A stretch of DNA of 53,907 nt from an uncultured bacterium (GTDB lineage: Bacteria; Fidelibacterota; Marinisomatia; Marinisomatales; UBA1611), in contig CAYOJL010000004.1 of NCBI GenBank assembly GCA_964404235.1, forward strand, positions 1 to 53,907. Direction: 5' to 3'. The notes below the pieces were generated by a model, which was given only the letters and a program-made list of their open reading frames with translations, made no database searches and was not told where the DNA came from. Below are positions 944 through 33,574 of the stretch, one piece after another. A program made the position numbers and the translations under genes. Every line of letters begins with the position of its first letter. The first letter of the stretch is position 1.

Positions 944-3082
<2,139 letters not shown>

Positions 3083-3090
3083 TTACTCCC

Positions 3091-3477: not shown

Positions 3478-3481
3478 ACAG

Positions 3482-3499: not shown

Positions 3500-3578
3500 G
3501 TTAAAGTATTATACTATTTGTATGAATGTCTTTAAGTTTTTGGATAACTAGTTAATCATTTTTAAAAAGGAATGAACT

Positions 3579-3776: not shown

Positions 3777-3816
3777 TAACTAATTGTTTTAAATATATGA
3801 AAAGTTGCAACACTTT

Positions 3817-4298: not shown

Positions 4299-4327
4299 CC
4301 CCCTCTTTATCTAGAGGGGGTTTTTTT
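4299..4327 (+). terminator. Rho-independent terminator (usable from both strands)
   Basis: The ccccctct / agaggggg stem (4299-4306 / 4313-4320) is followed by TTTTTTT (4321-4327). It sits between the convergent peroxiredoxin and EamA genes. Confidence 0.7.
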
Positions 4328-7780: not shown

Positions 7781-7913
7781 AACTACTCCATTTATATCTT
7801 AGGTTATAGAAGTTAAATCTAATGATCATTATAATAACTACAAACCACACAATCTAAATCAATAATTGTTCTTTTTACCTTTAAGTCCTTAGATAATTAG
7901 TTATAAAATTGTT

Positions 7914-8798
7914 TTATTTAACAATTAAAATAGGACAATTACATTTTTCCATTACATTCAGTGGTTTACTTCCCATAAAAAATTTAGCTATAGGGGATTG
8001 GCTAGATGCACCCATTATTATAATATGGTTACTATCTGCAGTTTCTATTATAGTATCTACTGGATTTCCAGTTTTAAACATTGTTTCTGCTTCTACTCCA
8101 CTTCTCCGCATCATTTTGGCTGCATTATCCGATGCCTTTTTATACCCGTCTTCCAAATGTTCATCCTTGCTAATAGTTATCAGGTCAACTTTGATATTGA
8201 ATGCCTGAGCAACCCTGACACCATATTTGACAGCTTTTGCGGTTCCAGGAGAATCATCAACAGCTAGCAGAATCTTATAATTTTCATTTTGATTAAAATT
8301 ATTTACAATAAAGATCGAACTATCAATATATTGGATCATATCATGGGCCATACTACGCTTTCCACTTCCCCCAATAATTGTAAGGTCATATTCATAGGTA
8401 TGTACCTCATCTCTCAATTCTTTAATGATATCCCCATTCCTTAAGATCAAAGATAAATTTTCTAGAGCTGAACCTTTTAATAGTACCTCAGCTCGACCTG
8501 AGCCACTTTCAATAAGAACATTCTTAGGGAAACCATCTTTGATTGCCTGTTCTTCAATAAATTGGTTCTTTGAAAGATAATTATAGGCCCATTCTAATAC
8601 ATCTACACCAGGCCTATCTATATCCCAGGATTCCATGACCTCATTGGCCATACTCACATCCTTGAGACTAAACTCACTGATCTTTTGACCTACATCCACA
8701 ATGGTAGTAGAAGATCTAAGAGCACGGGCAATATTCATACCAACATCTAGGGTAGGACCTGAGTATTCTTTACTGCTAATTGCGATTAAAATTTTCAT
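7914..8798 (-). CDS. Tandem-domain universal stress protein
   Basis: Two USP repeats, ending in the typical NCPILIVK. The ATG at 8798 gives an ATGA overlap with the SLC13 stop and is preferred over the TTG at 8813. Confidence 0.8.
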   Translation of the reverse strand: MKILIAISSKEYSGPTLDVGMNIARALRSSTTIVDVGQKISEFSLKDVSMANEVMESWDIDRPGVDVLEWAYNYLSKNQFIEEQAIKDGFPKNVLIESGSGRAEVLLKGSALENLSLILRNGDIIKELRDEVHTYEYDLTIIGGSGKRSMAHDMIQYIDSSIFIVNNFNQNENYKILLAVDDSPGTAKAVKYGVRVAQAFNIKVDLITISKDEHLEDGYKKASDNAAKMMRRSGVEAETMFKTGNPVDTIIETADSNHIIIMGASSQSPIAKFFMGSKPLNVMEKCNCPILIVK

Positions 8799-10210
8799 AA
8801 TAATATTGGCCAATAAAACGTTGAGATCATCAAAAGCACCACGACGGAAATAATGAATAGTTTCCAGCCCGCTTTAAAATAATCACTTGAAGTAATAAGA
8901 CCAGTGGAATGTATAATCATACACGTAGGTGATGCCACAACAGTTAAATAAGCAAAGGCAGATGCAATAGATGTCATAATTCCCATAATTATAGGATTGC
9001 CACCCATATCTAGAATGATAGGACCAAGTACAGCTACAGTGGCGGCATTGCTTAATAGATTCGTTAATATTCCTGTTATAATAACAGATACAAACCATCT
9101 AACGACAGCAATATCTTGAAATATAAGTTCTAAATAATAAAGTGTCTCTTCAGCAACCCAAAGTGCCGCTCCGGTCTCTTTCATCTGTATACCTATAGAT
9201 ATTGCTGAACCAAATAATAATATCACACCCCAATTGGTATTTCTATTTATCTCTTGCCACTCAACCAGGCCAAAAGAAAGATAAAGAAAGACCCCACTCA
9301 ATGCTACAATACCAAGTCCAATAATGGGGCTTAGGAAGACCCAACCCAGAAAAACAAATATGAATATGACAATCGCCATTATTTGATTCGCTGTCAATTT
9401 CCCGGTCTTTGCAACTTTTACCTTTAATTTTCTAACAGATGAATCCATCATCTTTTGTTCAGGTGTAAATGTAAACCATAGGATCAATGCAACGATCGGG
9501 ATCTCTATAATTAACATAGGATAAGCAAACTTCATCCAGTCGAGATAAGAAATTTCGGCCATACCAAATTCTGATAAATAGCCTATCATAATTACATTTC
9601 TTCCCCCACCAGAAGGCGTCCCAATAGAACCAACAGCACAACCATATGCTATAGAAAAAAGGAGCAATGTAGAAAGTTTGGTGTTTTGTGTGGTACTTAA
9701 ACCGGCATTTCGAATTAGTGCGAGTGCAACCGGTAACATCATGGCCCCAACAGTATGTTCGCCAATAAACGAGGATAGGAAAGCTGAAATAGCTACAAAA
9801 CCAAGTACAATCCGCCAAGTTTTATTTCCTGTAATATTTATAACTAAAAGAGCTAATCTCTTATCGAGACCCTGATGGACAAGGGATACAGCCAGCATTA
9901 AAGAGCCCATAATAAAGAATACAGCATCACTCATAAAAGATGATGCCACACCATCTGCAGTATCAACTCCAAGTATGACCTCCATTATCAATATTAAAAT
10001 AGCCACACCTGGTAGAGGTATTGATTCACTTATGATCAATATCAATGCTACAAGAACAATGATCAATGTGCGGTGTCCTTCAGGTGAAAGACCATCTGGT
10101 GAAGGAACATAAAAAAAGGAAATACTAAGTAAAAAAGAAAGAATTAGCCACTTTTTACGAGTGACCCAGAATAATATATTTGAGACCGAGCGTGCCGAAA
10201 AACCAAACAT
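8795..10210 (-). CDS. SLC13/DASS-family anion permease (sulfate / di-tricarboxylate type)
   Basis: 471 aa and highly hydrophobic, with the inverted-repeat layout and SNAATVA / SFIGEHT-type hairpin motifs typical of SLC13/CitMHS permeases. Confidence 0.75.
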   Translation of the reverse strand: MFGFSARSVSNILFWVTRKKWLILSFLLSISFFYVPSPDGLSPEGHRTLIIVLVALILIISESIPLPGVAILILIMEVILGVDTADGVASSFMSDAVFFIMGSLMLAVSLVHQGLDKRLALLVINITGNKTWRIVLGFVAISAFLSSFIGEHTVGAMMLPVALALIRNAGLSTTQNTKLSTLLLFSIAYGCAVGSIGTPSGGGRNVIMIGYLSEFGMAEISYLDWMKFAYPMLIIEIPIVALILWFTFTPEQKMMDSSVRKLKVKVAKTGKLTANQIMAIVIFIFVFLGWVFLSPIIGLGIVALSGVFLYLSFGLVEWQEINRNTNWGVILLFGSAISIGIQMKETGAALWVAEETLYYLELIFQDIAVVRWFVSVIITGILTNLLSNAATVAVLGPIILDMGGNPIIMGIMTSIASAFAYLTVVASPTCMIIHSTGLITSSDYFKAGWKLFIISVVVLLMISTFYWPILL

Positions 10211-10237
10211 TGGTATTCGGAATTTATTGATTAAAAG

Positions 10238-10654
10238 TTATTGGTGTGTACAATCACTTGGCACCTTTGTCCCATCTTTATGAATAGCCCATTTCCAAAT
10301 AGGAACCTTTCGTTTAAGCTCTGATATAAAATAGGTCATGGCATCTAACCCTTCTTTTCGATGCTTGGACCATATCACAACATGCAGACTTACTTCACCC
10401 ACTTTTACTTTACCAACACGATGCTTACAAAATAGATCATGGATAGAAAATTTATTAATGGTCTCTTCAGCAATTATCTTTAACTCTTTTTCAGCCATCC
10501 CATCATATTGTTCATATTCGAGATCTGTTATCTCTTTATCATCCTCTATTGATCTGACCCTTCCATTAAAAGTAAGTTCAGCTCCTTCATCTGTCCGTTC
10601 ATTATCAGCTGGAAAAGGAAATATGGGACCTTTTATAATCTCAACTTTGACCAT
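10238..10654 (-). CDS. moaE: Molybdopterin synthase catalytic subunit
   Basis: MoaE-like sequence with a C-terminal VPIWKW motif. It lies immediately after moaD. Confidence 0.9.
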   Translation of the reverse strand: MVKVEIIKGPIFPFPADNERTDEGAELTFNGRVRSIEDDKEITDLEYEQYDGMAEKELKIIAEETINKFSIHDLFCKHRVGKVKVGEVSLHVVIWSKHRKEGLDAMTYFISELKRKVPIWKWAIHKDGTKVPSDCTHQ

Positions 10655-10900
10655 TTATCCACCCTGCACTGGAGGAATTAGGACAACCTCATCACCATCT
10701 TTTAATTCTTTATCATCCTTAACATATTCCTGATTTATGGCTATACGGAGTATAACATCGTCTAATTTATTTGCTGAACTACGACGTACTATACTTTCAA
10801 ATTCAGAAGATGTTGTACCATTTTCTAATTCAAAGGTCATCTCATCAGTTCCTAAAGCATATTTAACCTGAGAAAAACATTTTAATTTGACCTTTATCAT
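10655..10900 (-). CDS. moaD: Molybdopterin synthase sulfur-carrier subunit
   Basis: 81 aa, a ubiquitin-like protein ending in GG. Confidence 0.85.
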   Translation of the reverse strand: MIKVKLKCFSQVKYALGTDEMTFELENGTTSSEFESIVRRSSANKLDDVILRIAINQEYVKDDKELKDGDEVVLIPPVQGG

Positions 10901-11871
10901 AATTTGATCGTTTGTGTTGTATGATTCATCCCATCATATAATAGAAGTTTTCCTACTAGATTTGGCTTTATATCTAAAATGAGTTTTACCGTCTCAAGTG
11001 CTTGAATATTACCAATGATACCAGGCAACATTCCTAAGATACCTGCTTCTGAACAAGTCTCTGCACTTGATGGCTCAATTGGAAATAATTCACTGTATCC
11101 ACCACTACCATTTGCATTTAAAATTGCCACCTGACCTTCATACCTATATAGAGCACCATAGATCATGGGTATATTTGATCTCTTACATAATTTATCAACC
11201 AATTTTCTAGTTGAAATATTATCAGTCGCATCTATTACAACAGTTGCATCCTCAATAAGCTCAAAGCCATTGTCCTCATCTAAAAAAGAATGGACTGGTT
11301 CAATTAATGCCTCCTTGGATAGATTTTGTAGACTATCCTTAGCAGCATGAACCTTCATTCTTCCAATATCTTCAAATCCATATAATGGCTGTCGGTGAAG
11401 ATTGCTTAACTCCACGACATCTCCATCAATTATCCTTAGTGTTCTTATTCCACATGCAATAAGTGATTGAGCAACAGGACAGCCAAGTCCACCCATCCCT
11501 ACAATAACAACATTAGAATCCATTAATTTTTTTTGGCCTTCTAATCCAACCTCTTTCAGAATTGTTTGCCGAGACCACTGACTCATATCTCTTTTATCTG
11601 AATGGAAAGCATTCCACGCTTCGATTCCACCTAATAGACTAAAAGTATCCTTTAAATTATTTTCAATAATAATTCCCTCTGTAACAATTCCAAATTGGCA
11701 CATTAATACTAATTTATTATTTGTTTCTGGTAAAGAGCGTGCGTCTGCGACCACATGATCGACCCCTGTAATGGTGCAATTCTTTATCTGATCTACTTCA
11801 CGGATATCAACAGCTATAAAAGAATGATCATTATCGATCCAATTTTGTAATTCTTTTGGGGTAATGATCAT
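10897..11871 (-). CDS. moeB: Molybdopterin-synthase adenylyltransferase with an N-terminal rhodanese-like domain
   Basis: Residues from about 100 onward are a ThiF/MoeB E1 fold (SRQTILKEVGLEGQKKL...VVIVGMGGLGCP, ETCSEAGILG). Residues 1 to about 95 look rhodanese-like, with candidate active-site loop MCQFGIVT. Confidence 0.85.
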   Translation of the reverse strand: MIITPKELQNWIDNDHSFIAVDIREVDQIKNCTITGVDHVVADARSLPETNNKLVLMCQFGIVTEGIIIENNLKDTFSLLGGIEAWNAFHSDKRDMSQWSRQTILKEVGLEGQKKLMDSNVVIVGMGGLGCPVAQSLIACGIRTLRIIDGDVVELSNLHRQPLYGFEDIGRMKVHAAKDSLQNLSKEALIEPVHSFLDEDNGFELIEDATVVIDATDNISTRKLVDKLCKRSNIPMIYGALYRYEGQVAILNANGSGGYSELFPIEPSSAETCSEAGILGMLPGIIGNIQALETVKLILDIKPNLVGKLLLYDGMNHTTQTIKL

Positions 11872-13091
11872 TTGAGTTCAGCCCAAGGTAAAAGATTAAT
11901 CTGTATAGAATCTCCTTCTAAAAGATCGTCAGAACCTGGATCGGCTCCTAATATACAATTTGCACCTAATGCAGATGTTAGCATATGTGATCCAACCTTA
12001 GTGGATGGGCTGCATAATATTTTCCCTTTCTCTATCCAAGCATTGCCAAATAGATATCGAAATTTTATTTTATCTCTTTTGAAAGATTCTTTGAGGATCC
12101 CAATTAAATATGGATCTTCAAAATGCCCCATCATCTGTCCGACCACCGGCCAAACCCATTCCATAAATCCGATGAAAGAAGAAATAGGATTACCTGGCAG
12201 ACCAAAGATCAATTTATTTTTTTTTGATCCAAAAAAGAGTGGTTTACCTGGTTTTTGAGCAACTTTCCAAAAAGATTCCTTTACTCCTAGCTCCATGAAT
12301 ACGTCTCGTACATGATCATATCTCCCCATCGACACACCGCCAGAAGAAATGATCAGATCGCAATTTTCTAAAGCCTCTGATAAGTATGAGTGCAATGCGC
12401 TTTTATCATCTTTAACCACGTCTTGCATTACAACCTTTCCACCTGCTTTTCGAACTAGCTCTGAAAACATATAAAGATTAGAGTTATATATCTTACCCTC
12501 TTTTAATTTTTTACCTGGCTCTATCAACTCATTCCCAGTTGCAAAGATAGCAACCTTTGGTTGCTTTAAAACATTAATATTACTTTGACCAAATGCAGCA
12601 CAAACACTTAACTCACTTGGAGTAATACGTGTTCCTTTTTTGATCAGAATATCTCCTTTTTTGATCTCTTCTCCTTTTAATCGAATATTCTTTCCAGGAT
12701 AAACATCAGCCATTATTTCTATCATTTCATTATCCGAATATCCACTCGTCTGTTCAACCATGATAACTGCATCAGCTCCATTAGGTATCTTCGCACCTGT
12801 CATGCATTGAATACATTCCCCGGGTTTCAATTTAAGTGAGCTTGGAGATCCTGCTGCACTTGAACCAATATTTTTCAACGATACGGGAGTCTGTTGAGAA
12901 GCTTCATGTGTGTCACTTGAACGCACAGCAAAACCATCCATGGCTGAGTTATCAAATCTTGGAGAAGGAAATGTCGCTATTACATCGTGGTCAATGATTC
13001 GGCCACTTGAATCACTTAATAAGATCCTCTCCGAATCTAATTGAAAGATATGTTCAGATATGATCCCTTTTGCCTTTTGAACAGATATCAA
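11868..13091 (-). CDS. moeA: Molybdopterin molybdenumtransferase
   Basis: FDNSAMDGFAV motif and MoeA length and domain order. Confidence 0.93.
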   Translation of the reverse strand: MISVQKAKGIISEHIFQLDSERILLSDSSGRIIDHDVIATFPSPRFDNSAMDGFAVRSSDTHEASQQTPVSLKNIGSSAAGSPSSLKLKPGECIQCMTGAKIPNGADAVIMVEQTSGYSDNEMIEIMADVYPGKNIRLKGEEIKKGDILIKKGTRITPSELSVCAAFGQSNINVLKQPKVAIFATGNELIEPGKKLKEGKIYNSNLYMFSELVRKAGGKVVMQDVVKDDKSALHSYLSEALENCDLIISSGGVSMGRYDHVRDVFMELGVKESFWKVAQKPGKPLFFGSKKNKLIFGLPGNPISSFIGFMEWVWPVVGQMMGHFEDPYLIGILKESFKRDKIKFRYLFGNAWIEKGKILCSPSTKVGSHMLTSALGANCILGADPGSDDLLEGDSIQINLLPWAELK

Positions 13092-13828
13092 AACATTTTC
13101 CCTAATAAAAATATAATCGCGATCAGAATGATAATCCCCATGATCTTTTGTATACTGTTTGGGTCATATTTGGTTGCACCAAAATATGAGCCAAGAGATC
13201 CTCCAATAATAACAGATAGAACAGAAGGCAGGATCATATCATATTCAAATCGTAAATACTGATAGCGTGCAGCTAGACCAGCAAAAGAATTTGAACAAAC
13301 AAAAATTGTACCTGCTGCTGCAGCTTCTTTCTCTGATCCTAATCCTAAGATAATTATAAGTGGAATAAGATATATTCCCCCTCCGATACCAATTGCTCCT
13401 GCAATAAATCCAAGTAATGAACCAATAGATATAATTGCGAACCATTTTTGTACTTTGGTTAATTGAACGGAAAGCACAAGATCATTCATGATATAAATTC
13501 TTATTGCAATAAGTATGAGCGTTATTAAAAGAATGATCTGAAAAATAAATTCATTTAATGTTATTGACCCTGCAAAATATGCCATGGGAATAGATGTTAT
13601 TAAAAATGGGAAGACCAGACTAGATCTACCATATCCAAACCGCCAAAAATTGACCATCCCAAAAAATGTTACTAAAAGATTGAGCGTTAACGATATAGGA
13701 GGTATGATCTGATAACTGACTCCAGAGATCGCCATAATTGCTGTGTATGAAGATCCACCACCCAGCCCTACACTCGAATAAATAAATGAAACAAAGAAAA
13801 AGGAAAATGGAATGAGATATTCCATCAA
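13088..13828 (-). CDS. TauE/SafE-family (DUF81) anion permease
   Basis: SSVGLGGGSSY and AIGIGGGIYLIPL repeat motifs, about 8 TM helices. It has 4-nt overlaps with both neighbouring Moco genes. Confidence 0.8.
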   Translation of the reverse strand: MMEYLIPFSFFFVSFIYSSVGLGGGSSYTAIMAISGVSYQIIPPISLTLNLLVTFFGMVNFWRFGYGRSSLVFPFLITSIPMAYFAGSITLNEFIFQIILLITLILIAIRIYIMNDLVLSVQLTKVQKWFAIISIGSLLGFIAGAIGIGGGIYLIPLIIILGLGSEKEAAAAGTIFVCSNSFAGLAARYQYLRFEYDMILPSVLSVIIGGSLGSYFGATKYDPNSIQKIMGIIILIAIIFLLGKMF

Positions 13829-14766
13829 TGTTTTTCACCTTTGATCATATGGAATGAATGGAATATAGTGGGGATCAACACATTTAATGCATCTTTTGCA
13901 GCACCCTTGCTTCCAGGTAAGCAGATCACAATCGTATCCTTGATCACACCAGCAGTTAACCGTGAAAGCATAGCTGTTTTTACTTTATTACGTCCATACG
14001 CATGAAGAGCTTGTTCAACACCAGGTAGTTTAGAATCGAACATTCCATCTAATACTTTTATTGTAAGGTCTCGCTCACCAAGACCTGTACCTCCAGTAGT
14101 AACGATCAATTCAACACCATCATCGATCCAATCGTTTATCAAAGGCACTAATTCCTCTGAACCATCTGGCAATACTTTTTGATGGTCTACATTACACCCT
14201 GACCCAATGAACCCTTCTATGAGTAGTGGCCCTGAAACATCCTTATTTTTTCCTGCTGACACACTATCACTTAATGTGATAACACCAACCTTTGGACGAT
14301 ATTCAGTAGAATATGTAGATCTTCCTCCTTCTTTTTCTAGGAGTTGTATATCCTTGACCACCATGGTCTTATCAATGGACTTACACATATCATAAATCGT
14401 TAGAGCAGCATTTGAAACAGCAGACAGGGCTTCCATTTCAACGCCTGTTGCTTCCTTGGTCTTTACCGTTGATCTAATAGATATATGATCCGGCATGATT
14501 GAGAATTCTATATCCACATAGGAAAGATTTAACTGGTGACACATAGGAATAAGCTCTGCTGTCTTTTTAGCCGCTTGTATACCAGCTATCTTTGCGGTAG
14601 TGAACACATTACCTTTTGGAAGCTCATCATCTTGTATTGCTGCAATGGTCTCGTGTTTCATAAAGATCATTCCTTCTGCTTTCGCGATTCGTAAGGCATT
14701 GATCTTATCTGTTACATCTACCATTCGCACATTTCCTTTTTTATCTAAATGAGAAAGATCACTCAT
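13825..14766 (-). CDS. moaC: Bifunctional MoaC (cyclic pyranopterin monophosphate synthase) / MoaB-Mog-type domain fusion
   Basis: The N-terminal half is MoaC-like (MVDVTDK...IPMCHQL...GVEMEAL). The C-terminal half is a MogA/MoaB fold (VGVITLSDS...TTGGTGLGERD). Confidence 0.9.
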   Translation of the reverse strand: MSDLSHLDKKGNVRMVDVTDKINALRIAKAEGMIFMKHETIAAIQDDELPKGNVFTTAKIAGIQAAKKTAELIPMCHQLNLSYVDIEFSIMPDHISIRSTVKTKEATGVEMEALSAVSNAALTIYDMCKSIDKTMVVKDIQLLEKEGGRSTYSTEYRPKVGVITLSDSVSAGKNKDVSGPLLIEGFIGSGCNVDHQKVLPDGSEELVPLINDWIDDGVELIVTTGGTGLGERDLTIKVLDGMFDSKLPGVEQALHAYGRNKVKTAMLSRLTAGVIKDTIVICLPGSKGAAKDALNVLIPTIFHSFHMIKGEKH

Positions 14767-14769
14767 TAA

Positions 14770-15816
14770 CTAACCTCCTATCTGGGTCATGGATTCCCTG
14801 CTTTCATTCCCTTGACGCTGAGCAGTCCAACCATCGATCATTTTTTCACCCATTGCTTTACGTATCATATCTTTGATCAGGTCATTAGAAAGGCCTTGGC
14901 GAATTGCATCTCTAATATTTGTTTCTATTTTACTGTATAAACAGTTTAATAGTTTTCCATCTGCTGTAATTCTAATTCTATTGCATTTTGCACATAGAGT
15001 GCGTGTATATGAAGGAATCACTGCTACTCGCCCTTTATATCCTTCAATTTGGAATATGTGGTGTTCAGTGCTAGAGCCAGATATCGGTCTTAATAGTTTG
15101 ATATTTGCTCTCAGGTCAGCTAAGATCCTATCAGCACTATAATATTTTCCTGTTCGCCATATCTGATGTGAATCAAATGGCATTAGTTCAATAAATCGTA
15201 CTGTAATGTCATTCGTCTTGGTCAATTCAACGAAATCAAGGATCTCATCTTCGTTAAAATCTCTCATAGCAACTACATTCACTTTAATATTCTCTATATT
15301 AGACAAGACAGCCTCATTCAATCCTTTCATAACATTCTGAAATTCATCACGACGTGTGATCTTTTTAAATTTCTCAGCATCCAAGGTATCAAGGCTGATA
15401 TTAATTCCGGTTAGACCTGCCTGTTGAAGTTGATCTATATACTTTGATAATAGAAGCCCGTTTGTGGTGATATGGACTGATTCAAAAATTGATCTTTTCG
15501 ATGAGTATTCGATCAGATCTATAATATCCTTACGTAATAGAGGCTCACCTCCTGTAAAACGGACCTTATTTACGCCTAGGTCTGACATGATCTGCAAAAT
15601 ATTTTTTATTTCAGTTGTGGATAAGAGTTGATCCTGCCCAAGAAAAGACACACCTTCTTCAGGCATGCAATAGACGCACCTTAGATTACAATGCTCATTT
15701 ACTGCTAGCCTGAGATAATTGAAAGTTCTACCGAAATGATCGGTGATGGGTGGGTCCAAGGATATACCTTGGTTGGCCGCCAATGGGTGGATATGTGTAT
15801 TATTTTCTTTTCTCAT
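14770..15816 (-). CDS. moaA: GTP 3',8-cyclase (radical SAM)
   Basis: CNLRCVYCMP radical-SAM motif, a C-terminal CAKCNRIR second cluster, and it ends in GG. Confidence 0.95.
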   Translation of the reverse strand: MRKENNTHIHPLAANQGISLDPPITDHFGRTFNYLRLAVNEHCNLRCVYCMPEEGVSFLGQDQLLSTTEIKNILQIMSDLGVNKVRFTGGEPLLRKDIIDLIEYSSKRSIFESVHITTNGLLLSKYIDQLQQAGLTGINISLDTLDAEKFKKITRRDEFQNVMKGLNEAVLSNIENIKVNVVAMRDFNEDEILDFVELTKTNDITVRFIELMPFDSHQIWRTGKYYSADRILADLRANIKLLRPISGSSTEHHIFQIEGYKGRVAVIPSYTRTLCAKCNRIRITADGKLLNCLYSKIETNIRDAIRQGLSNDLIKDMIRKAMGEKMIDGWTAQRQGNESRESMTQIGG

Positions 15817-15834
15817 TCCAAGTCATTCTGTTTT

Positions 15835-15925
15835 TTTAGAAATCGGGAGCAGATCCTAACGTTTCCATGAGAACCGTATCGGCCTCGAGCCATATCCAAA
15901 TCATTATGGACTTAGGCTCTTTGGC
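15835..15925 (-). promoter_or_regulatory. Candidate Moco (molybdenum cofactor) riboswitch in the moaA leader
   Basis: The intergenic region upstream of moaA is 206 nt. The minus strand reads ...AGAGCC-hairpin-GGCUCGAGGCCGAUACGGUUCUCAUGGAAACGUUAGGAUCUGCUCCCGA. From memory this resembles the conserved CUCCGAGCC / GGAAAC / GCCUCCC blocks of the Moco RNA motif, and the stems are nested. Confidence 0.5.
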
Positions 15926-16022
15926 TAAGAGAAGATTATTGGTTTAAATCTATTGCTTTAATTTTCTATAAACAATATCAGCTATTTTATTATTTATTGT
16001 AAATAAGACAAACCTAGATTGT

Positions 16023-17654: not shown

Positions 17655-18781
17655 TTAGATCTCTTTGAAGTTCTTTTAAGCATTTTAGGCAGATTGAATA
17701 AAAGATGTATCAATAAACCAATGCTCATTATAATACTTGAAATATATGGGAACATTCTACCATAATTCTTTACCGTTGCTAAGACGGTGGTCTCCTTATC
17801 TAGCCCTTCTACAAAGGACGCTTGGTAAAAGGTATATCCTTTATGCCTAAGTGGTTCATTCATTTGGATAAGGACTCTACGCGGGATCTTATCTTCAATC
17901 AAATTGACCTCTGAGCTGAAACTTTTTGCAACATTTGTACCAGGGTGCATAACCTTTTTAAAATCTAAAAGCTCAATAGCAAATGGTAGATAGGTTCTTT
18001 TTCTTCGAAACTCAGCAAAAAATAATTCACCACCTATCTCAAATGTATCTGGGACTCTTTGTCCTAAGAATGCACCATAAATACCATCAGTTTCTTTACC
18101 GGTTCCAGCTAATTTAAAAATTAATCCTGGACGATTTTGAGTATTCTCTTTATCTGGCTGTTTTGGAATAATTACAAAATCATCTAGAAATCCCTTATAG
18201 ATCGAATCAGCTGGAGATATCCTACTCTCAATTCTCACATTCTTTATATGGTCTATAATATCAATTTGAATCCCAAGTTTATCATATTTTATGCTACTCC
18301 CTTCACCCAATAATGGAGCATCAAAAATAGTATATTCCAAACTATCCTCAAGAGAAGTATTTACAAAGGCAAGCTCCATATCATGGTAATCATCTACATG
18401 ATCAGAGCTTTCTCCCTCTTTAATGACCATATTCCCTTCTGCACTGAACTTTGCCGTAATACCACCTCCTATCAACAGCAGTAAACCGCCTACATGAACA
18501 ATGATTATACCCAATTTTTTCATTTTCCATAGATTCTTATTAAATAGGCTTGATGCTAGATTGATCGTCATAATAATAATTGTGATCCTACCACCAGGAA
18601 GAGGTAAAAAACCGGCAAAGAGAAAATAATAAGATGAAAAATACTTTACTTGTGAAGCATACAGTCCTACATCTTTTTGAGCGATCGTGCCAAAAAATAC
18701 AAGTACGATCAACCATACAACCGTGTATGAGAATACTTTTGGACTACTAATGAACTTTATCAATTGTTTTATATCACTCAT
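17651..18781 (-). CDS. ccsB: Cytochrome c biogenesis protein ResB/CcsB
   Basis: ResB layout: N-terminal TM helices, a large loop, then MNEPLRHKGYTFYQASF and a C-terminal TM helix. It has a 4-nt overlap with ccsA. Confidence 0.85.
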   Translation of the reverse strand: MSDIKQLIKFISSPKVFSYTVVWLIVLVFFGTIAQKDVGLYASQVKYFSSYYFLFAGFLPLPGGRITIIIMTINLASSLFNKNLWKMKKLGIIIVHVGGLLLLIGGGITAKFSAEGNMVIKEGESSDHVDDYHDMELAFVNTSLEDSLEYTIFDAPLLGEGSSIKYDKLGIQIDIIDHIKNVRIESRISPADSIYKGFLDDFVIIPKQPDKENTQNRPGLIFKLAGTGKETDGIYGAFLGQRVPDTFEIGGELFFAEFRRKRTYLPFAIELLDFKKVMHPGTNVAKSFSSEVNLIEDKIPRRVLIQMNEPLRHKGYTFYQASFVEGLDKETTVLATVKNYGRMFPYISSIIMSIGLLIHLLFNLPKMLKRTSKRSK

Positions 18782-19329
18782 TCCGGTATATATATAGATT
18801 CACAGAATGATCTGAATTCAGATTCGATCTCACTTATCCCACCACCATTGATCGAAAGCTTCACGAAAACCGTTCTATCTTTAAGTTGAAAGATCGAAGC
18901 AAGTATCGCATTCTCTTTCTGATACTCATTGATCAATTTGAAATATTGATAATCACCTAACTTTCCTCGGCTAGTTAAAGAAAGTTTTTGAATTTCAATT
19001 AAAGATAATGGTTCCAATTCAATCTGGCCAAGCCAACGGTTCACATTTGCCTCTACACCACCACTTATTCCAGAAAAAGTTGTGATCGATAGGTCACCTT
19101 TCCCTTTTGTGGTTGGAACACTAAAACTAGCTAACCTCATAGAATGCCCCTGTACTTCGGTCCACATTTCAGGTGTTTCCCATTTTAAGATAAACTCATT
19201 CTTATCCTTTATAGTATTATCCAAGGGTTGCTCTTGTTTCGGTAAACGGTATGTACGAATATGATCTCCTGAATCGCAGGACATAATAAATAGCGTGTAA
19301 GATAAGAGAATGATTATGATCTTGTACAA
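18778..19329 (-). CDS. Lipoprotein of unknown function
   Basis: The signal peptide ends in a lipobox (LFIMSC). There is a 4-nt overlap with ccsB. I recognise no motif. Confidence 0.55.
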   Translation of the reverse strand: MYKIIIILLSYTLFIMSCDSGDHIRTYRLPKQEQPLDNTIKDKNEFILKWETPEMWTEVQGHSMRLASFSVPTTKGKGDLSITTFSGISGGVEANVNRWLGQIELEPLSLIEIQKLSLTSRGKLGDYQYFKLINEYQKENAILASIFQLKDRTVFVKLSINGGGISEIESEFRSFCESIYIPE

Positions 19330-19427
19330 AATGGAGCTCTATTTAACTAGTAGAAATTTGCGATCGATCCAGAGTTTAGTTCAAATTACTTTTTATCTTA
19401 GGGATATAACGAACAATAAGAATTATA

Positions 19428-22265
19428 TTATTTTAAATAGAATTGATCTTCTTGAGGTGTCAATGGTCTTCCCATCCATAACGGTCGACGCAATCCATTT
19501 GGATGAGTTTCCCTCTTTTTTGCCCATTCATTCCACTTTTTAAAATGCTCGAAGGATCTATTAGTATCAACAAAAATATCACCATATCCTTCATTTGGAC
19601 CAGGTTTTGAGATACTGACCTTTTGTAACCAACAATGAGCTCCGGATATTGGGTCAGGGTTGGCTGCGTGTGTGATATTTTGATGAACACCACCATCTCG
19701 CCACCATATTCTATTCGTGTCCGGATCATTCGTCTGCCAAGATTCAACTCCTTTTATGGTACTCATTTTCCATTTTCCATCGCCTAAGTTCTTTATATCA
19801 ACAGTATTGGTCATAAATCGATTCCCTTCATCCTGCTGTCTTCTCCATCTACCAATATGATGAGAGCATGCAACTACACCAGGCTTGATGGCTTCGGTCA
19901 CCCATACTTTATCAACAAACCACCCTATCTCTGTTTTGACCTTAAGAAGGTCACCGTTATCTACGCCTATTCTTGCAGCATCCTTCGTATGGATCCATAT
20001 TGGATTACGATGAGCGATCTCAGTGAGCCACTTTGCATTGGCTGAGCGAGAATGGATATGGGTTGGTAATCTAAAATTAGGTAATAGAATGCACTCATTT
20101 TTTTCTTTATCCATTTCATCTAGGTGCACATGGCTTTTGATCCTATATCCAGGTGTGGCATGTTCTGGATATCCAAAATCAGACATGGTCTGTGAAAATA
20201 TTTCCTGCCTCTTAGATGGTGTTGGAAATCCCTTATATTTCTCACCATTTACTTCAATACCTACAATATTGTCACCTTTTATAACCTGTCCATTTGGCCT
20301 TACAGTTGTTTCTAGATCATCTATAGGATCTTCATTATTTTTATATACATTATCATCAACAAGAAAGGCTCCATACTTACGCATGTATTCTAATGGTGTC
20401 ATATCTTCCTTTCCTGCTACATCAGTTAAACCTTCCGTATGCTCAAAGATATATTGATAATATTCATCTATATTGATCTTCTCATTATCTCGATAAGGAC
20501 TCATAAAATGTTTTCGTATGCCCAGATCCTCATTTTTATCGATCTGCCAAGATAATTCGATCCAAAATTCATCTTCCTCCCAAACTTCACCAGGGTTAAC
20601 CTCATAAGTGAATTTCACTTCTTTACCATCCCTGCGAGCTTTTTCACGCAATACAGGTTGTCTAAAAGCGATCCAAATACCAGCCTGAGTTTCATAAGAA
20701 TTTATATCATGACGCTCTGAGGCATGCCCCATAGGTAATACGTAATCCGCGAAAAAAGCCGTTTCATTCCAAGTTGGTGTAAGTGCAATATGACATCCCA
20801 CCTTTTCCATATCAGAAAGCATTTCAATCCAAGTAAATCCATCTGGATAGGTCCACACTGGATTAAAAACACGAGTGAAATAAACATCTATTGAACCTCT
20901 ATTATCTTTTAAAAGATGAGGAAGGATCTGACTCATCTCATAGTGTGCTAAGGTGTACTCTTTTGGCCAATTCAATTCATTCCAAGCATCTGGACCGGGA
21001 GGTGAATCAAAAAATTCTGGATGAAATTTATTCCAAGCACTAGGAGATGTTCCTCCCTCTGTACCAACTGAACCAGTTAGTACATTCAACAAATGCAAAG
21101 TACGTGATACTTGCCATCCACCTAGATTACCAATTGATGGTCCTCTCCATACATGTGTAGATAATTTTGAGCCTGCCTTACCGATCAACTTTGCTACACG
21201 AATAATCTGATCTACCTCTATTTGAGCTTCTTTAGCAGCAAATTCTGGTGTATACATTTTCCATTCTTCAGCCAATCGTTTTATGAATTGATCGAATTCA
21301 ACTGGATCGGAAGGATGAAGGTTCTTTAAATAGTCATCCCAGTTTACCCAGTTTTCCAAATAATCCCTGTCATATAATTCCTCATCCAAAATGATCTTCG
21401 CGATCGCCATGTACACAGCGGGTTCACTACCAGGATATGTAGGCATCCACTCATCTGCCATAGAAGCAGTATTTGAAAGTCGAGGATCCATGACAATAAG
21501 CTTTGCACCTTTCATCATCCCTTCCATTATCCGTTGTGCATGGGGATTGAAATAATGGCCTGTTTCAAGATGCGATGATGCTAAAAGGATCACTTCTGCA
21601 TTGGTATGATCTGGACTTGGTCGATCGTATTTATGCCAGAGTGCATATCCGGTTCGTGCACCGGCAGAACAAATATTAGTGTGGGAATTATGCCCATCAA
21701 CTCCCCAAGCTTTTAAAACTCGTTCAGCATAACCTTCATGTCCTGGTCTTCCCACATGATATACTACACCATCTTTTCTTTTACGGATAGATGATGCTAT
21801 CTTTTCAGATATTTCTTCTAATGCTTTATCCCAGCTAATGCGTTCCCATTTACCTTCACCTCTCTTGCCAACACGTTTAAGAGGATACAATATCCGTTCT
21901 GTATCGTTGATCTGATTAATAGTGGCAGGGCCCTTCGCACAATTACGTCCCCTACTTCCGGGATGATGAGGATTCCCTTCAAATTTACGTAGTTTATCTG
22001 TCTCTTTATCAATATAGGCCAATAATCCACATGCGGATTCACAATTAAAACAAGTAGTAGGAACAATAGAATAGTGGCGATCTTTTTTTTCAGGCCAAGC
22101 TAAAGGATCTAATTCCACAAAGTCATTCCACTCGCTTGGATCAGGATATTTATAGAGCTCTCTTGGACCACTCATAGCGAATTCTTCAGACCAATCAGGT
22201 CGGTCCGATATTTTAGGTATCAATCCTAATGATTCGGAGAATGTTTCTATCCAAGATCTCTTCAT
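19428..22265 (-). CDS. Molybdopterin (bis-MGD, DMSO-reductase family) oxidoreductase catalytic subunit with no Tat signal
   Basis: CFNCESACG-x28-C FeS0 motif (C-x2-C-x3-C-x29-C), about 945 aa, and HTNICSAG as a possible Cys Mo-ligand. The N-terminus MKRSWIETFSE lacks a twin-arginine motif. ATG is at 22265 and an alternative TTG at 22271. Either start abuts or overlaps the upstream stop. Confidence 0.9.
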   Translation of the reverse strand: MKRSWIETFSESLGLIPKISDRPDWSEEFAMSGPRELYKYPDPSEWNDFVELDPLAWPEKKDRHYSIVPTTCFNCESACGLLAYIDKETDKLRKFEGNPHHPGSRGRNCAKGPATINQINDTERILYPLKRVGKRGEGKWERISWDKALEEISEKIASSIRKRKDGVVYHVGRPGHEGYAERVLKAWGVDGHNSHTNICSAGARTGYALWHKYDRPSPDHTNAEVILLASSHLETGHYFNPHAQRIMEGMMKGAKLIVMDPRLSNTASMADEWMPTYPGSEPAVYMAIAKIILDEELYDRDYLENWVNWDDYLKNLHPSDPVEFDQFIKRLAEEWKMYTPEFAAKEAQIEVDQIIRVAKLIGKAGSKLSTHVWRGPSIGNLGGWQVSRTLHLLNVLTGSVGTEGGTSPSAWNKFHPEFFDSPPGPDAWNELNWPKEYTLAHYEMSQILPHLLKDNRGSIDVYFTRVFNPVWTYPDGFTWIEMLSDMEKVGCHIALTPTWNETAFFADYVLPMGHASERHDINSYETQAGIWIAFRQPVLREKARRDGKEVKFTYEVNPGEVWEEDEFWIELSWQIDKNEDLGIRKHFMSPYRDNEKINIDEYYQYIFEHTEGLTDVAGKEDMTPLEYMRKYGAFLVDDNVYKNNEDPIDDLETTVRPNGQVIKGDNIVGIEVNGEKYKGFPTPSKRQEIFSQTMSDFGYPEHATPGYRIKSHVHLDEMDKEKNECILLPNFRLPTHIHSRSANAKWLTEIAHRNPIWIHTKDAARIGVDNGDLLKVKTEIGWFVDKVWVTEAIKPGVVACSHHIGRWRRQQDEGNRFMTNTVDIKNLGDGKWKMSTIKGVESWQTNDPDTNRIWWRDGGVHQNITHAANPDPISGAHCWLQKVSISKPGPNEGYGDIFVDTNRSFEHFKKWNEWAKKRETHPNGLRRPLWMGRPLTPQEDQFYLK

Positions 22266-22267
22266 GA

Positions 22268-23875
22268 TCAACTTAAAGGTATCATTTGTGGTACTCTTAT
22301 ACGCACAAACTCTGTTAAAAAAATTCCGATCAGTGCCATAACACCTGCTACGAGTTCATGGCCTGTACTTACAGTTAAGATCAAAAAAGGCAGTAGACTT
22401 CCTAGAACAACACCAGGCCAAAAATATCTCGAATAATAGCCATTTGTCATCATCTGTATTGCTTTTTTACTGTCTGGAGTATCGTGAGGTATGAATACCT
22501 CTTTTAGAATAATAAATACATTTAATAAAATGGAGAAATATAGTATGCTTCTCATTATGCTCGTTGACCCTGTGTCGATCATGATCATAATTACCGATCC
22601 TGCAATAATTGCATGAACCAACATATGTATTGCACCTATCCATGGCGTTTGCCAGAGATCTCGTCCCCTTGCTTGATTAAAAAGGAATGCTGTATAGATC
22701 GCTCCGAGAACAGCAAAGACTGCCCCGATACTCCATGCCCATTTAAGTCCAAGATCAAAATAATGATCGATCAGTAGTAAAACTACCATTCCTCCAAAGA
22801 TCGTAATGATGTATGCACCTCGCACCAACCATGATCTCCATTGAGGGCGCAATAGAACATACAAGAATCGGTCTGGCCTATCTAGATCTTTGACCAATAA
22901 TGCCCCTGTTAGGCCCATAAAGATCAAAGATGTATATAACCCACTTATTTCAACGGTACGATCTAAAGGGCCATTCATGAACTGATAGATGGCCATCATT
23001 AAGAATGTTCCCGTTGCAATTGCTTTTGTCCATACATAGGATGTGACCTCCCAACCCCAAAGCACACCCTTACTTGGAGAATCATATACTCTACGCGCTT
23101 TATTTTCATCCACATCTTGCTGTATCTCTTTTGCAACTTGATCGATAGACCGTTGGTCAATAGGGTTCCCACTACGAGCAGAGTTTTCCATTGCGAGTTG
23201 TATTAATAAATTCTCTGTATCTGATTCATTTACTCGGTTATCAGCATATTTTGCATAATGCCCTACTCCCTTTGACTGCTCTGACCAAACATATTCCCAA
23301 TCTGCCTCGGTTTGATTTGGGTCTAACATTTCATTTGTACCATTTATATAGTAAAGATTAGGCTGTGTCATTTTCTCTGGCTTTCTGGCCATAACATTTT
23401 CGTTGGCTAATAGATCAGAGATCTTTGAATTATTATCATCCATATCTCCAGATATGATCGCCTCTACTGGACAGACTATTACACATGCTGGTTCATATCC
23501 ACCATCAAGGCGATGGGCACAGTAATTGCACTTTGCGGCCGTATTTGTATCTGGATCAATATAAAGTGCATCATATGGACAGGCTTGCATACATGATTTG
23601 CATCCAATACATCGGTCATTATCAAAATCTACAATACCATCAGAACGTGTGAACAGGGCAGTAGTCGGACATATCTCTACACATGGTGCATTTGCACAAT
23701 GATTACAACGATGGACCGAAAATTCTCTGCTACTATTTGGGAATATGCCCTTTTCAATATATTTTACATGGGTACGGTTCACACCAATAGGTACATCATG
23801 CTCACTTTTGCAAGCAACGGTGCAGGCATGACAGCCAATACACAAACGATTATCTATAATGAATCCGTAATTCAT
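22268..23875 (-). CDS. Fusion protein: 4x[4Fe-4S] ferredoxin-type (PsrB/DmsB/SoeB-like) domain plus NrfD/PsrC-like 8-TM quinone-interacting membrane domain
   Basis: Four Cys clusters: CIGCHACTVAC, CNHCANAPCVEICP, CIGCKSCMQACP and CNYCAH...CVIVCP. An acidic linker and 8 hydrophobic helices follow, beginning WGWEVTSYVW. The start is placed at MNYGFIIDNRLCIGC (23875), because the longer ORF to 23953 would leave 2 nt before divergent mobA. Confidence 0.85.
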   Translation of the reverse strand: MNYGFIIDNRLCIGCHACTVACKSEHDVPIGVNRTHVKYIEKGIFPNSSREFSVHRCNHCANAPCVEICPTTALFTRSDGIVDFDNDRCIGCKSCMQACPYDALYIDPDTNTAAKCNYCAHRLDGGYEPACVIVCPVEAIISGDMDDNNSKISDLLANENVMARKPEKMTQPNLYYINGTNEMLDPNQTEADWEYVWSEQSKGVGHYAKYADNRVNESDTENLLIQLAMENSARSGNPIDQRSIDQVAKEIQQDVDENKARRVYDSPSKGVLWGWEVTSYVWTKAIATGTFLMMAIYQFMNGPLDRTVEISGLYTSLIFMGLTGALLVKDLDRPDRFLYVLLRPQWRSWLVRGAYIITIFGGMVVLLLIDHYFDLGLKWAWSIGAVFAVLGAIYTAFLFNQARGRDLWQTPWIGAIHMLVHAIIAGSVIMIMIDTGSTSIMRSILYFSILLNVFIILKEVFIPHDTPDSKKAIQMMTNGYYSRYFWPGVVLGSLLPFLILTVSTGHELVAGVMALIGIFLTEFVRIRVPQMIPLS

Positions 23876-23955
23876 AAAATCAGGGTCAAAGAAAGCCTTT
23901 GAAAATAATAAATCAAATGATATGTAATTAATCTTTCTAGTATGGAAATTCAAAT

Positions 23956-24534
23956 ATGATACCTGCTACAGCTTTTATATTGATTGGCGGAGTTAGTCAA
24001 CGCTTTGGCACACCCAAATGGCAAGCAATTATTGATGGGGAAACCGTTCTTGATCGTATATGGAACTCATGTGATAAGTTTCAAGAAAGATATATTATTG
24101 GTAAAAATCAACATAGAGACAAAAAAAAACCTTTCCTAATGGATGAGCTAGATATAGAAGCACCGATCAATGGTCTATATACTGCTCTTGTTCATACCAC
24201 TAGTGATTGGATATTATTGCTTTCTTGTGATCTTCCATTAATGGATCAAGATACTATTGCTCATTTATGGTCTTATGTAAAATCAGGAAAAGAGATCATT
24301 GTACCAGAGATAAATGGAGAATTACAACCTACTTGTGCACTCTATAATAAAAGACTTAAAGACCCCGTCTTTGAACAAATAAACAATAACAGATTGAGTT
24401 TAAAAGAATTAATCAGTAAAGTGGATTATCATTCGATCGATCTAAATGAACGATCTGATTATTTTCTAAATATGAATACAAAAAGTGATATGAGCAGAGC
24501 AGAAAAAATATTAAGCTCAAAAAGTTCCAAGTAA
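23956..24534 (+). CDS. mobA: Molybdenum cofactor guanylyltransferase
   Basis: The N-terminal motif LIGGVSQRFGTPKW is typical of MobA-like NTP transferases, and the length is about 190 aa. Confidence 0.85.
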   Translation: MIPATAFILIGGVSQRFGTPKWQAIIDGETVLDRIWNSCDKFQERYIIGKNQHRDKKKPFLMDELDIEAPINGLYTALVHTTSDWILLLSCDLPLMDQDTIAHLWSYVKSGKEIIVPEINGELQPTCALYNKRLKDPVFEQINNNRLSLKELISKVDYHSIDLNERSDYFLNMNTKSDMSRAEKILSSKSSK

Positions 24535-24549
24535 ATCATTATCATAATT

Positions 24550-25071
24550 ATGTTAAATGCAGTTATAGATAAACTGAAAGAATTTTCAAAAGAAGACTTT
24601 CCAGTTCCGGAAGTGTCATCCTATTTACTTGATCTGAATATCGATCAGAAAGAACTGAAAAAATATTTATTACGTGAAAATGATCACTATACCAGAAATC
24701 TAATTCATAGAGATAGTGATTTTGAAATAATGATTATTTGCTGGCCACCAAATACTGCGGCACCGATCCATGGACATGAAGGTGAAAAATGTTGGGCTAG
24801 AGTTCAAGATGGAAATCTTCAAATATGCAATTATGAAGAGATCTCTTCCAAGCCACTAAAATTAAATATGGTACAAGAATTATCATGTGCACCAGGATTT
24901 TTAGATGGCCCAGCTGATATACATTCTGTAGAAAATATAACTGAAGAATTTGCAACCAGCCTGCATGTATATGCCAAACCATATGATGCATGCGATATAT
25001 ATGATATTGAAAAAGGAACGATCGATCGAATAAAACTAAGCTATCATAGTATTGATGGCATTCTATGTTGA
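24550..25071 (+). CDS. Cysteine dioxygenase type I (cupin), Arg-type
   Basis: It aligns without gaps to mammalian CDO blocks: YTRNL, IMIICW, PIHGH, EKCW, DIHSVEN and SLHVYAKPYDAC. Confidence 0.85.
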   Translation: MLNAVIDKLKEFSKEDFPVPEVSSYLLDLNIDQKELKKYLLRENDHYTRNLIHRDSDFEIMIICWPPNTAAPIHGHEGEKCWARVQDGNLQICNYEEISSKPLKLNMVQELSCAPGFLDGPADIHSVENITEEFATSLHVYAKPYDACDIYDIEKGTIDRIKLSYHSIDGILC

Positions 25072-25076
25072 TAGCA

Positions 25077-33050: not shown

Positions 33051-33056
33051 AACAGA

Positions 33057-33572: not shown

Positions 33573-33574
33573 CT

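Follow-up and report, generated by a model that had tools for sequence, protein, structure and literature searches.

The SoeABC enzymes are sulfite:quinone oxidoreductases, characterised in Allochromatium vinosum, Aquifex aeolicus and R. pomeroyi, and are associated with sulfite that arises in the cytoplasm. A cytoplasmic orientation, opposite to that of Psr and Phs, has been proposed for SoeABC (PMC8076601), and a review summarising Dahl et al. 2013 reports its genes as universal in the genome-sequenced purple and green sulfur bacteria (PMC8232776). In the uncultured clade SAR406 (Marinimicrobia), Wright et al. 2014 described a fosmid, FPPP_13C3, which carries pentose-phosphate genes, a psrBC fusion, a psrA without twin-arginine translocation (Tat) signal and adjacent molybdenum cofactor (Moco) genes; psrA has close relatives in Marine Group II (MGII) archaea, and the published tree places the SAR406 PsrA homologues with a green-sulfur-bacterial cytoplasmic PSR, a proposed sulfite oxidiser (PMC3906813). 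Later work kept the polysulfide reading (PMC5688066) or called the function open (PMC8359478). Here we analyse a locus of essentially the same type, at positions 7914-25071 of a 53,907-nt contig from an uncultured bacterium (CAYOJL010000004.1; the whole contig is referred to as the window), in which the operon for the molybdenum (Mo) enzyme lies beside a gene for cysteine dioxygenase (CDO).

We propose, with a probability of about 0.5, that this Mo enzyme works like SoeABC, oxidising cytoplasmic sulfite, and that the CDO route is one source of sulfite in this lineage. The proposal is made because sulfite alone links the three elements found around the enzyme or in its place: the CDO route, persulfide dioxygenase (PDO), and YeiH, which replaces the enzyme at some SAR406 loci.

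The likeness to SoeABC was judged by architecture and context. Common to both are an A subunit of ~950 aa with Mo-bisMGD, an FS0 cluster and no Tat signal, a four-cluster iron-sulfur (FeS) subunit, a haem-free NrfD anchor, a predicted cytoplasmic orientation and a tie to cytoplasmic sulfite production. In the present family a single polypeptide combines the B and C subunits and is encoded ahead of A (order BC-A), whereas the characterised enzymes have three subunits; the sulfite source would be CDO or PDO rather than reverse Dsr; and the hosts are heterotrophs (SAR406, MGII, Bacteroidota, Actinomycetota) outside the reported range of SoeC (PMC8076601). PsrABC and PhsABC share the architecture of complex iron-sulfur molybdoenzymes (CISM) and are the nearest named models by score, but they are periplasmic, Tat-exported and reductive, with an identity of ~26%, and the window enzyme lies far below the family cut-offs. 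As for FPPP_13C3, the paper describing it makes no mention of CDO, YeiH, permeases or PDO contexts and favoured polysulfide metabolism (PMC3906813); with 32.8% GC, against ~37% for the window, the fosmid represents another lineage.

Three further systems resemble parts of the locus. Animal cysteine catabolism (CDO, aspartate aminotransferase, sulfite oxidase) likewise runs from cysteine through cysteine sulfinate and sulfite to sulfate with a molybdoenzyme as the last step, and the window CDO belongs to the mammalian type, having both Arg60 and the Cys93-Tyr157 pair; the last enzyme here would, however, be a membrane-bound, quinone-reducing member of the DMSO-reductase family and not a SUOX-fold protein. 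In Salmonella, YeiH is the main sulfite-resistance determinant (PMC12880088), and in Bordetella pertussis excess cysteine induces two CDOs together with a putative sulfite exporter of the yeiH family, whose gene is needed to cope with the excess (bioRxiv 10.64898/2026.04.22.720190). As in Bordetella, CDO would be coupled to sulfite disposal in SAR406: the loci without Mo enzyme carry the same CDO + YeiH pair, in divergent arrangement (compare also Salmonella YeiE/YeiH), whereas the window has a would-be sulfite-oxidising, electron-conserving enzyme in the place of the putative exporter. Finally, the same enzyme family is found inside heterotrophic sulfide detoxification modules (SQR, PDO-rhodanese, BigR/CstR, TauE-type exporters) in Bacteroidota, Actinomycetota, MGII and the SAR406 locus L005; unlike these, the window has no SQR, PDO or persulfide-sensing regulator.

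Already known are the locus type, SoeABC as a concept, the route that leads from CDO via sulfite to sulfate (in animals) and the CDO-YeiH pairing (in Bordetella). Judging from the literature searched, what is new is that CDO is coupled to the enzyme, together with the enzyme-or-YeiH pattern of SAR406 and the cross-phylum sulfur-oxidation context of the family; no paper linking CDO with SAR406 was found in the literature search.

Gene families were called with Pfam and NCBIfam profile searches on the listed open reading frames (ORFs). The Mo subunit contains the FS0 cysteine motif and both molybdopterin domains of the DMSO-reductase family, and Cys74, Cys77, Cys81, Cys111 and the HTNIC201S motif are invariant across 12 homologues. 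Neither the N-terminal 70 residues of the Mo subunit nor the N-terminal 60 of the FeS subunit contain a twin-arginine motif, and the N-terminus of the Mo subunit is conserved across phyla with no RR. The FeS domain, without signal peptide, is fused directly onto the N-terminus of NrfD, and the K/R-rich loops of NrfD fall on the FeS-domain side by the positive-inside rule, in a topology taken from simple, crude hydropathy analysis rather than from a dedicated predictor. The sole C..CH match in the FeS-NrfD protein, at residue 38, is the cysteine cluster motif of the ferredoxin and no haem site. Since the missing Tat signal, the FeS-NrfD fusion and the loop charges all agree, the enzyme is predicted to be a cytoplasm-facing CISM enzyme, and the orientation proposed in the initial annotation of this DNA holds at the sequence level. 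Homologues of the FeS-NrfD protein align only from residue 27-28 onward, so that its true start is probably M27, near 23875, which would leave ~80 nt of divergent intergenic DNA.

The Mo subunit scored below every NCBIfam cut-off, the best model being that of PhsA (NF012032; 204.9 bits vs 694). Among solved structures it is closest to ArrA, acetylene hydratase and PsrA, with partial-length matches only, and it is 26% identical to a plasmid-borne PhsA and 30% to an Arx-type enzyme (plasmid tblastn). SoeA was not among the NCBIfam models or the solved-structure matches for the Mo subunit, and no named SoeA was found via the representative search, which listed few full-length relatives below 50% identity, or via cluster look-up. 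The label "Soe-like" is based on architecture and genomic context; an indirect link to SoeA comes from the published tree (PMC3906813).

Relatives of the Mo subunit are widespread. Identity is 59-87% across SAR406, MGII archaea, Bacteroidota, Planctomycetota and Acidobacteriota, and the loci with a Mo subunit 86-87% identical to that of the window are Marinimicrobia/SAR406 metagenome-assembled genomes, the clade from which the window also comes. A homologue search with the 39%-identical P0124 retrieved an unnamed clade from Acidobacteriota, Actinomycetota, Chloroflexota and Dormibacteria, and plasmid tblastn identified members of the same family in haloarchaea, Thermomicrobium roseum and Rhodococcus jostii, plus one match in Azoarcus. 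The Mo subunits of the cultured carriers L162, L163, L045 and L072 are 50-62% identical to that of the window. Several carriers are aerobes: R. jostii, T. roseum, Flavilitoribacter, Lutibacter and the surface-ocean MGII.

The Azoarcus match, on plasmid pAZKH of Azoarcus sp. KH32C (L161), is a 30%-identical Mo subunit in a separate FeS/NrfD/Mo-subunit/TorD set, beside genes for a PhnD-like binding protein, a histidine kinase, a sigma-54 regulator and ACR3; by these features the set reads as an Arx-type arsenite oxidase and not as a Soe enzyme. In two SAR406 loci, L167 and L168, the Mo subunit is 86-87% identical to that of the window vs only 57-72% for the moa genes and 52% for the DASS permease, and the window Mo subunit is 65-70% identical to the MGII archaeal copies (loci L007-L017). 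Such conservation suggests that the subunit is under unusually strong constraint or was recently transferred among marine plankton.

The best solved relatives of the window CDO are the mammalian enzymes (E 1e-18). His74, His76 and His125 align with rat His86, His88 and His140, the 3-His iron site of the cupin fold; the YTRN motif aligns with rat Y58-T-R60-N; and Cys81 and Tyr141, both invariant, are the equivalents of the rat Cys93-Tyr157 cross-link pair. Counterparts of rat Tyr58, Arg60, His86, His88, Cys93, His140 and Tyr157 are kept in all five aligned CDOs. Arg60, which binds the carboxylate of cysteine, marks cysteine dioxygenases, and Gln marks 3-mercaptopropionate dioxygenases. Judged by its residues, with iron site, Arg60 and Cys-Tyr pair all kept, the window protein is a genuine Arg-type cysteine dioxygenase, in line with its first annotation as a cysteine dioxygenase. 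The Cys93 equivalent is carried by the CDOs of free-living marine SAR406 (the window, L001, L003) and of Planctomycetota (L031, L040).

Conservation of the neighbourhood was analysed in 80 genome loci centred on the Mo subunit. The only unit kept throughout is the fused ferredoxin/NrfD gene with the Mo subunit, the fusion being detected in 70 of the 80. SulP+STAS lies directly downstream of the enzyme in 28 loci. Immediately upstream, 25 loci encode an MBL-fold (metallo-beta-lactamase) persulfide dioxygenase that carries two rhodanese domains, among them the SAR406 locus L005 and the MGII locus L007. Other recurrent neighbours are rhodanese (19 loci), YeeE halves (10), SQR-like genes (10) and Crp (5). 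Genes for arsenic or selenium metabolism were absent from every enzyme context examined.

Among the MGII archaea, a TauE-family gene comes immediately after the Mo subunit in L008, and L011 has a relative of it beside the Mo subunit, on the opposite strand. In R. jostii RHA1 (plasmid pRHL3, L162) the fused pair is located among genes for ArsR, three MBL-fold proteins, DsrE, TusA and thioredoxin, and on the T. roseum megaplasmid (L163) a CsoR/RcnR-type regulator is found directly upstream of it. An anion permease after the Mo subunit, whether SulP, DASS or TauE, recurs across phyla, which fits with sulfate export. SAR406 repeatedly has Moco genes beside the enzyme, and the same is seen independently in Flavobacteriaceae, where moa genes lie near it in nine loci.

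The initial annotation had taken the 17 kb as one supercluster, a possible module for the conversion of cysteine to sulfite and sulfate. As a whole the block is not conserved, since its orthologues are not syntenic in relatives and its content varies even where the Mo subunit is 86-87% identical, although several of its pairwise links recur in independent lineages. In L001 rpe-tkt-rpiB and CDO-mobA precede the operon, and genes for a TonB receptor and SusD come after it; in L003 CDO is directly divergent from the operon and DASS directly follows it; and in L005 the operon is preceded by ArsR, DsrE and PDO-rhodanese and followed by DASS-USP-DASS, where USP stands for a universal stress protein. 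L168 has mobA and the enzyme, with a PemK toxin pair at the place of CDO. In L167, as in L005, PDO-rhodanese is located upstream of the enzyme, and no CDO was detected at these two loci. A distance of less than 10 kb separates CDO from the enzyme in three SAR406 loci (the window, L001 and L003) and in L031 and L040 (Planctomycetota), the last two having CDO beside the enzyme in another, convergent arrangement; in L031 a glutamate-type dehydrogenase (GDH) gene sits between the Mo subunit and CDO.

A second analysis was centred on CDO and covered 80 metagenome loci, all of which look like SAR406 because CDO is followed by rpiB-tkt-rpe. The enzyme adjoins CDO in 33 of these loci. In 23 others a ~360-aa membrane protein of the PF03601/YeiH family is divergent from CDO at 130-240 nt (YeiH-type loci L086, L095, L105-L134; e.g. 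L110:6720-7805, minus strand). Enzyme and YeiH beside the same CDO were found in none of the 80. The remaining loci, with neither, are too short to judge or have the lipoprotein gene directly beside CDO. The mobA-CDO pair, spaced by 16 nt on the same strand in the window, is kept in 17 of 24 SAR406 loci with the enzyme next to CDO, and in L092 the operon is flanked by both PDO-rhodanese and mobA-CDO.

The genes on both sides of this site form a stable SAR406 backbone, CDO-rpiB-tkt-rpe on one side and GDH-USP-DASS-CcsA-ResB-lipoprotein on the other, and between them the enzyme, YeiH, a sulfatase, an MBL-fold hydrolase and nucleases come and go. The interval between lipoprotein and CDO is thus a variable site; in L110, L120, L124 and L132, between the lipoprotein and YeiH genes, its contents include a sulfatase, an MBL-fold hydrolase, an endonuclease/exonuclease/phosphatase-family protein, a saccharopine-dehydrogenase-like protein and a PETase-like hydrolase. 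Comparison of the CDO-upstream regions of enzyme-type and YeiH-type loci gave no common operator motif, only ~55 nt next to mobA being shared (L119 vs L108 and L111).

A mechanism consistent with these patterns may be outlined as follows. CDO would convert cysteine to cysteine sulfinate, and a general aminotransferase, encoded outside the window, would convert this to 3-sulfinylpyruvate, which yields pyruvate and sulfite. The Mo enzyme would then oxidise cytoplasmic sulfite to sulfate, and its four FeS clusters would carry the electrons to quinone, bound in the NrfD domain. The sulfite source of other lineages would be a persulfide dioxygenase-rhodanese instead of CDO, and in SAR406 without the enzyme the YeiH-type sulfite-resistance protein, a putative sulfite exporter, would take its place beside CDO. 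Gene content, CDO active-site residues, synteny and the topology features of the enzyme were read directly from the DNA and its translations; what we infer from them is which substrate the Mo enzyme uses and in which direction it works, that cysteine sulfinate is transaminated, and how sulfate leaves the cell. The association with enzymes that generate sulfite in the cytoplasm was found with PDO-rhodanese in 25 of the 80 Mo-subunit loci, and with CDO in 33 of the 80 CDO loci and two Planctomycetota. The pathway suggested in the initial annotation is thus supported in part: the identity of CDO, its adjacency to the enzyme, its pairing with YeiH at loci without the enzyme, the recurrent Moco genes and the enzyme's context speak in favour; the proposed part of the permeases did not hold (see below), and a gene for the step from cysteine sulfinate to sulfite is absent from the window.

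Several observations weigh against the SoeABC-like function with CDO as a sulfite source. The enzyme is missing from 25 of the 50 informative SAR406 CDO loci and, as this is about half, CDO does not depend on it. The adjacency of CDO and enzyme in SAR406 could be one ancestral arrangement followed by differential loss, with few independent events, and the CDO genes of the Planctomycetota, convergent with the operon, are not co-transcribed with it. PDO-rhodanese fusions can give thiosulfate instead of free sulfite. Neither an aminotransferase active on cysteine sulfinate nor a desulfinase was found in the window. The reported range of SoeC as defined by KEGG is limited to Proteobacteria, Aquificae and a few Clostridia (PMC8076601), and a metatranscriptome study interprets the genes as polysulfide reductase (PMC5688066). 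The only aminotransferase-like protein of the window is kynureninase (class V fold), which was considered as the cysteine sulfinate aminotransferase and rejected, since it belongs to the tryptophan pathway.

The most probable alternative also takes the enzyme as a sulfite (S-oxyanion) dehydrogenase, with sulfite derived from persulfides, sulfonates or cysteine, and attributes the CDO adjacency to inherited gene order at a variable site, CDO serving general cysteine homeostasis. We regard it as unlikely, though it would account for the stable backbones between which the enzyme, YeiH and other genes are exchanged, for the CDO loci without enzyme, for the PemK pair in the place of CDO in L168 and for the PDO-rhodanese contexts of L167 and L005. 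Inherited order does not easily explain the strict enzyme-or-YeiH pattern (33 vs 23, with no locus having both), which is hard to understand without a shared link to sulfite, nor the independent adjacency of CDO and enzyme in Planctomycetota, nor the close spacing of mobA and CDO on one strand.

A different substrate appears less probable still: the enzyme might oxidise a sulfinate (cysteine sulfinate, hypotaurine) to a sulfonate, or act on thiosulfate, polysulfide or a non-sulfur oxyanion. No family model reached its cut-off, the solved relatives match partially, the identities to PhsA and to the Arx-type enzyme are low, and the substrate is not readable from sequence, as has also been stated for Psr, Phs and Sre (PMC8359478). 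The contexts, however, favour sulfite, which is the one product common to the CDO route and PDO and also the substrate tied to YeiH, and arsenic and selenium genes are missing from those examined.

That the enzyme is a polysulfide, sulfur or thiosulfate reductase for anaerobic respiration, the published SAR406 annotation (PMC3906813, PMC5688066), is very improbable in spite of its resemblance to Psr/Phs and of the expression of psr by some SAR406 clades under anoxic to sulfidic conditions (PMC5688066), given its predicted cytoplasmic orientation without Tat signal, the O2-dependent dioxygenases CDO and PDO as neighbours, its presence in aerobes (R. jostii, T. roseum, Flavilitoribacter, Lutibacter and the MGII of the surface ocean, among others), the origin of the fosmid with the same locus type from oxic 10-m water (PMC3906813) and Arctic96B-7 psr transcripts that peaked at depths without detectable H2S (PMC5688066).

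The features of the region are listed in Table 1. Every gene family named in the initial annotation is present, including the full moaA-moaCB-moeA-moeB-moaD-moaE set and mobA, and with moaA, moaC, moaB/mogA, moaD, moaE, moeA, moeB and mobA the Moco set of the window is complete; the trio of genes for a lipoprotein, a ResB-like and a CcsA-like protein between the Mo enzyme and moaA had been left out. No molybdate ABC transporter (modABC) was found among the profile matches of the window proteins. Scans of 7500-25600 for promoters and terminators gave counts equal to those in shuffled sequence, and transcription units are therefore not readable from them.

Table 1. Genes of the Mo enzyme region and the adjoining GDH gene, with positions in the window.
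Feature	Position	Strand	Evidence and remarks
Glutamate-type (ELFV) dehydrogenase, GDH	6548-7780	-	Pfam; just beyond the 7914-25071 region
Tandem USP gene (USP x2)	7914-8813	-	Pfam Usp; overlaps DASS gene
DASS/SLC13 permease	8795-10210	-	TIGR00785, 231.6 bits vs cut-off 198.6; Pfam Na_sulph_symp, CitMHS
moaE	10238-10654	-	Pfam
moaD	10655-10900	-	Pfam
moeB/ThiF	10897-11871	-	Pfam
moeA	11868-13091	-	Pfam
TauE/SafE (TSUP) permease	13088-13828	-	Pfam PF01925, 82.3 bits vs cut-off 32.6; overlaps moeA
moaC-moaB fusion	13825-14766	-	Pfam
moaA	14770-15816	-	Pfam
CcsA-like	16023-17654	-	System II cytochrome c biogenesis; ResB/CcsA Pfam PF05140, PF01578
ResB-like	17651-18781	-	System II cytochrome c biogenesis; ResB/CcsA Pfam PF05140, PF01578
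Lipoprotein, lipobox LFIMSC	18778-19329	-	No Pfam or NCBIfam match
Mo-bisMGD catalytic subunit (PsrA/SoeA-like), 947 aa	19428-22271	-	Pfam PF04879, PF00384, PF01568
Fused 4x[4Fe-4S] ferredoxin (PsrB/SoeB-like) + NrfD anchor (PsrC/SoeC-like)	22268-23953	-	Pfam Fer4_11, NrfD
mobA (Moco guanylyltransferase)	23956-24534	+	Pfam PF12804; NCBIfam MobA models
Cysteine dioxygenase (CDO_I, Arg-type)	24550-25071	+	Pfam PF05995, 70.6 bits vs cut-off 23

The region is a composite of five units, a patchwork rather than one conserved module. The first is the two-gene operon of fused FeS-NrfD and Mo-bisMGD subunit, whose product would be membrane-anchored with its catalytic parts in the cytoplasm, and the second the mobA-CDO pair, divergent from this operon. 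The lipoprotein, ResB and CcsA genes form a third unit of SAR406 backbone genes, the Moco-biosynthesis operon of SAR406, with the TSUP permease always inside, a fourth, and the backbone DASS-USP pair a fifth.

The two permeases had been brought into the pathway through their families, which are named for or include carriers of sulfite and sulfate. The TauE/SafE-type permease does belong to PF01925, but its gene is located between moaC-moaB and moeA in every SAR406 moa operon examined (n=7; window, L164, L166-L170), and the order of moaA and moaC-moaB is the same in L164 and L166-L170. In L166, L169 and L170 the moa operon adjoins an alternative complex III (ACIII) cluster, and no Soe-like enzyme was found within 9 kb. 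Because the gene is fixed in the moa operon even without the enzyme, it belongs with Moco synthesis and not with sulfite; a role in molybdate uptake is a speculative possibility. A conserved TauE partner of the enzyme was also considered and dropped, since BLASTP showed no similarity between the window TauE and the one encoded after the enzyme in MGII. An exact-sequence look-up of the window TauE gave no match, probably due to a differing called start codon.

The families of the SLC13 permease and of the USP coupled to it were both confirmed, but their tie to the enzyme was not, as the pair persists without it. DASS-USP follows moaE in the window, L164, L167, L168 and L170; it lies directly after the Mo subunit in L003, L005, L146, L147, L152 and L153; and it comes after CcsA in loci without both enzyme and moa block. 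Since it occupies three different positions, including loci that lack enzyme and moa block, the pair is backbone synteny. The DASS/SLC13 family also carries di- and tricarboxylates.

None of the 80 Mo-subunit loci has the lipoprotein/ResB/CcsA trio beside the enzyme, yet the trio does occur in SAR406 loci that lack the enzyme, where the lipoprotein directly adjoins CDO. No haem-binding motif was found in the three proteins. For these three reasons the trio was rejected as part of the module, and it is unrelated housekeeping backbone. GDH is equally present in SAR406 loci without the enzyme; it is possibly a helper that regenerates 2-oxoglutarate, yet it is also a backbone gene.

Elsewhere in the window, a complete, eukaryote-like kynurenine pathway for tryptophan breakdown (28324-37718, minus strand) adjoins the pentose-phosphate genes. 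The set comprises an M19 dipeptidase, a KMO-like flavoprotein, kynureninase, an ACMSD-like amidohydrolase, 3-hydroxyanthranilate dioxygenase, an aldehyde dehydrogenase, a short-chain dehydrogenase/reductase (SDR) and tryptophan 2,3-dioxygenase. With this pathway, CDO, GDH and two peptidases, the window is rich in amino-acid catabolism. An oxidative-stress set occupies 944-4284 (KatG catalase-peroxidase, a Fur/PerR-family regulator and an AhpC/Prx peroxiredoxin), near a Urate_ox_N membrane protein (5712-6494), and similar genes are located after DASS-USP in L164 and L170. At 4307-5628 (minus strand) an HPP-domain ORF (5158-5628) and an EamA-transporter ORF (4307-5212) overlap by 55 nt; the relative L164 has HPP and EamA as a single 438-aa gene, and the arrangement in the window may reflect either a frameshift or a genuine split.

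What the SAR406 psr genes do has been an open question since 2014, and claims of polysulfide respiration in oxygen-poor water by this abundant clade rest on them. The evidence from context points to aerobic, cytoplasmic oxidation of sulfite derived from cysteine or persulfides. A wider proposal, which we hold somewhat more tentatively than the function of the window enzyme, is that the "polysulfide reductase" genes of SAR406, MGII, marine Bacteroidota and many soil phyla might represent one unrecognised clade of energy-conserving cytoplasmic sulfite dehydrogenases, which would complete the heterotrophic oxidation of cysteine and persulfide sulfur to sulfate. At one genomic site, SAR406 populations would then either oxidise sulfite, with the Mo enzyme and its Moco operon, or export it through YeiH. 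As for molybdate, the importer that these streamlined genomes seem to lack may be the TSUP permease or the DASS encoded after moaE.

The enzyme pair is also found in the cultured, tractable R. jostii RHA1, T. roseum, Lutibacter, Flavilitoribacter and Natrinema, which makes the question testable. If the proposed function is true, SAR406, MGII archaea and marine Bacteroidota would convert organic sulfur back to sulfate and draw respiratory electrons from it, and metagenomic surveys that call SoeABC rare or absent would undercount sulfite oxidation.

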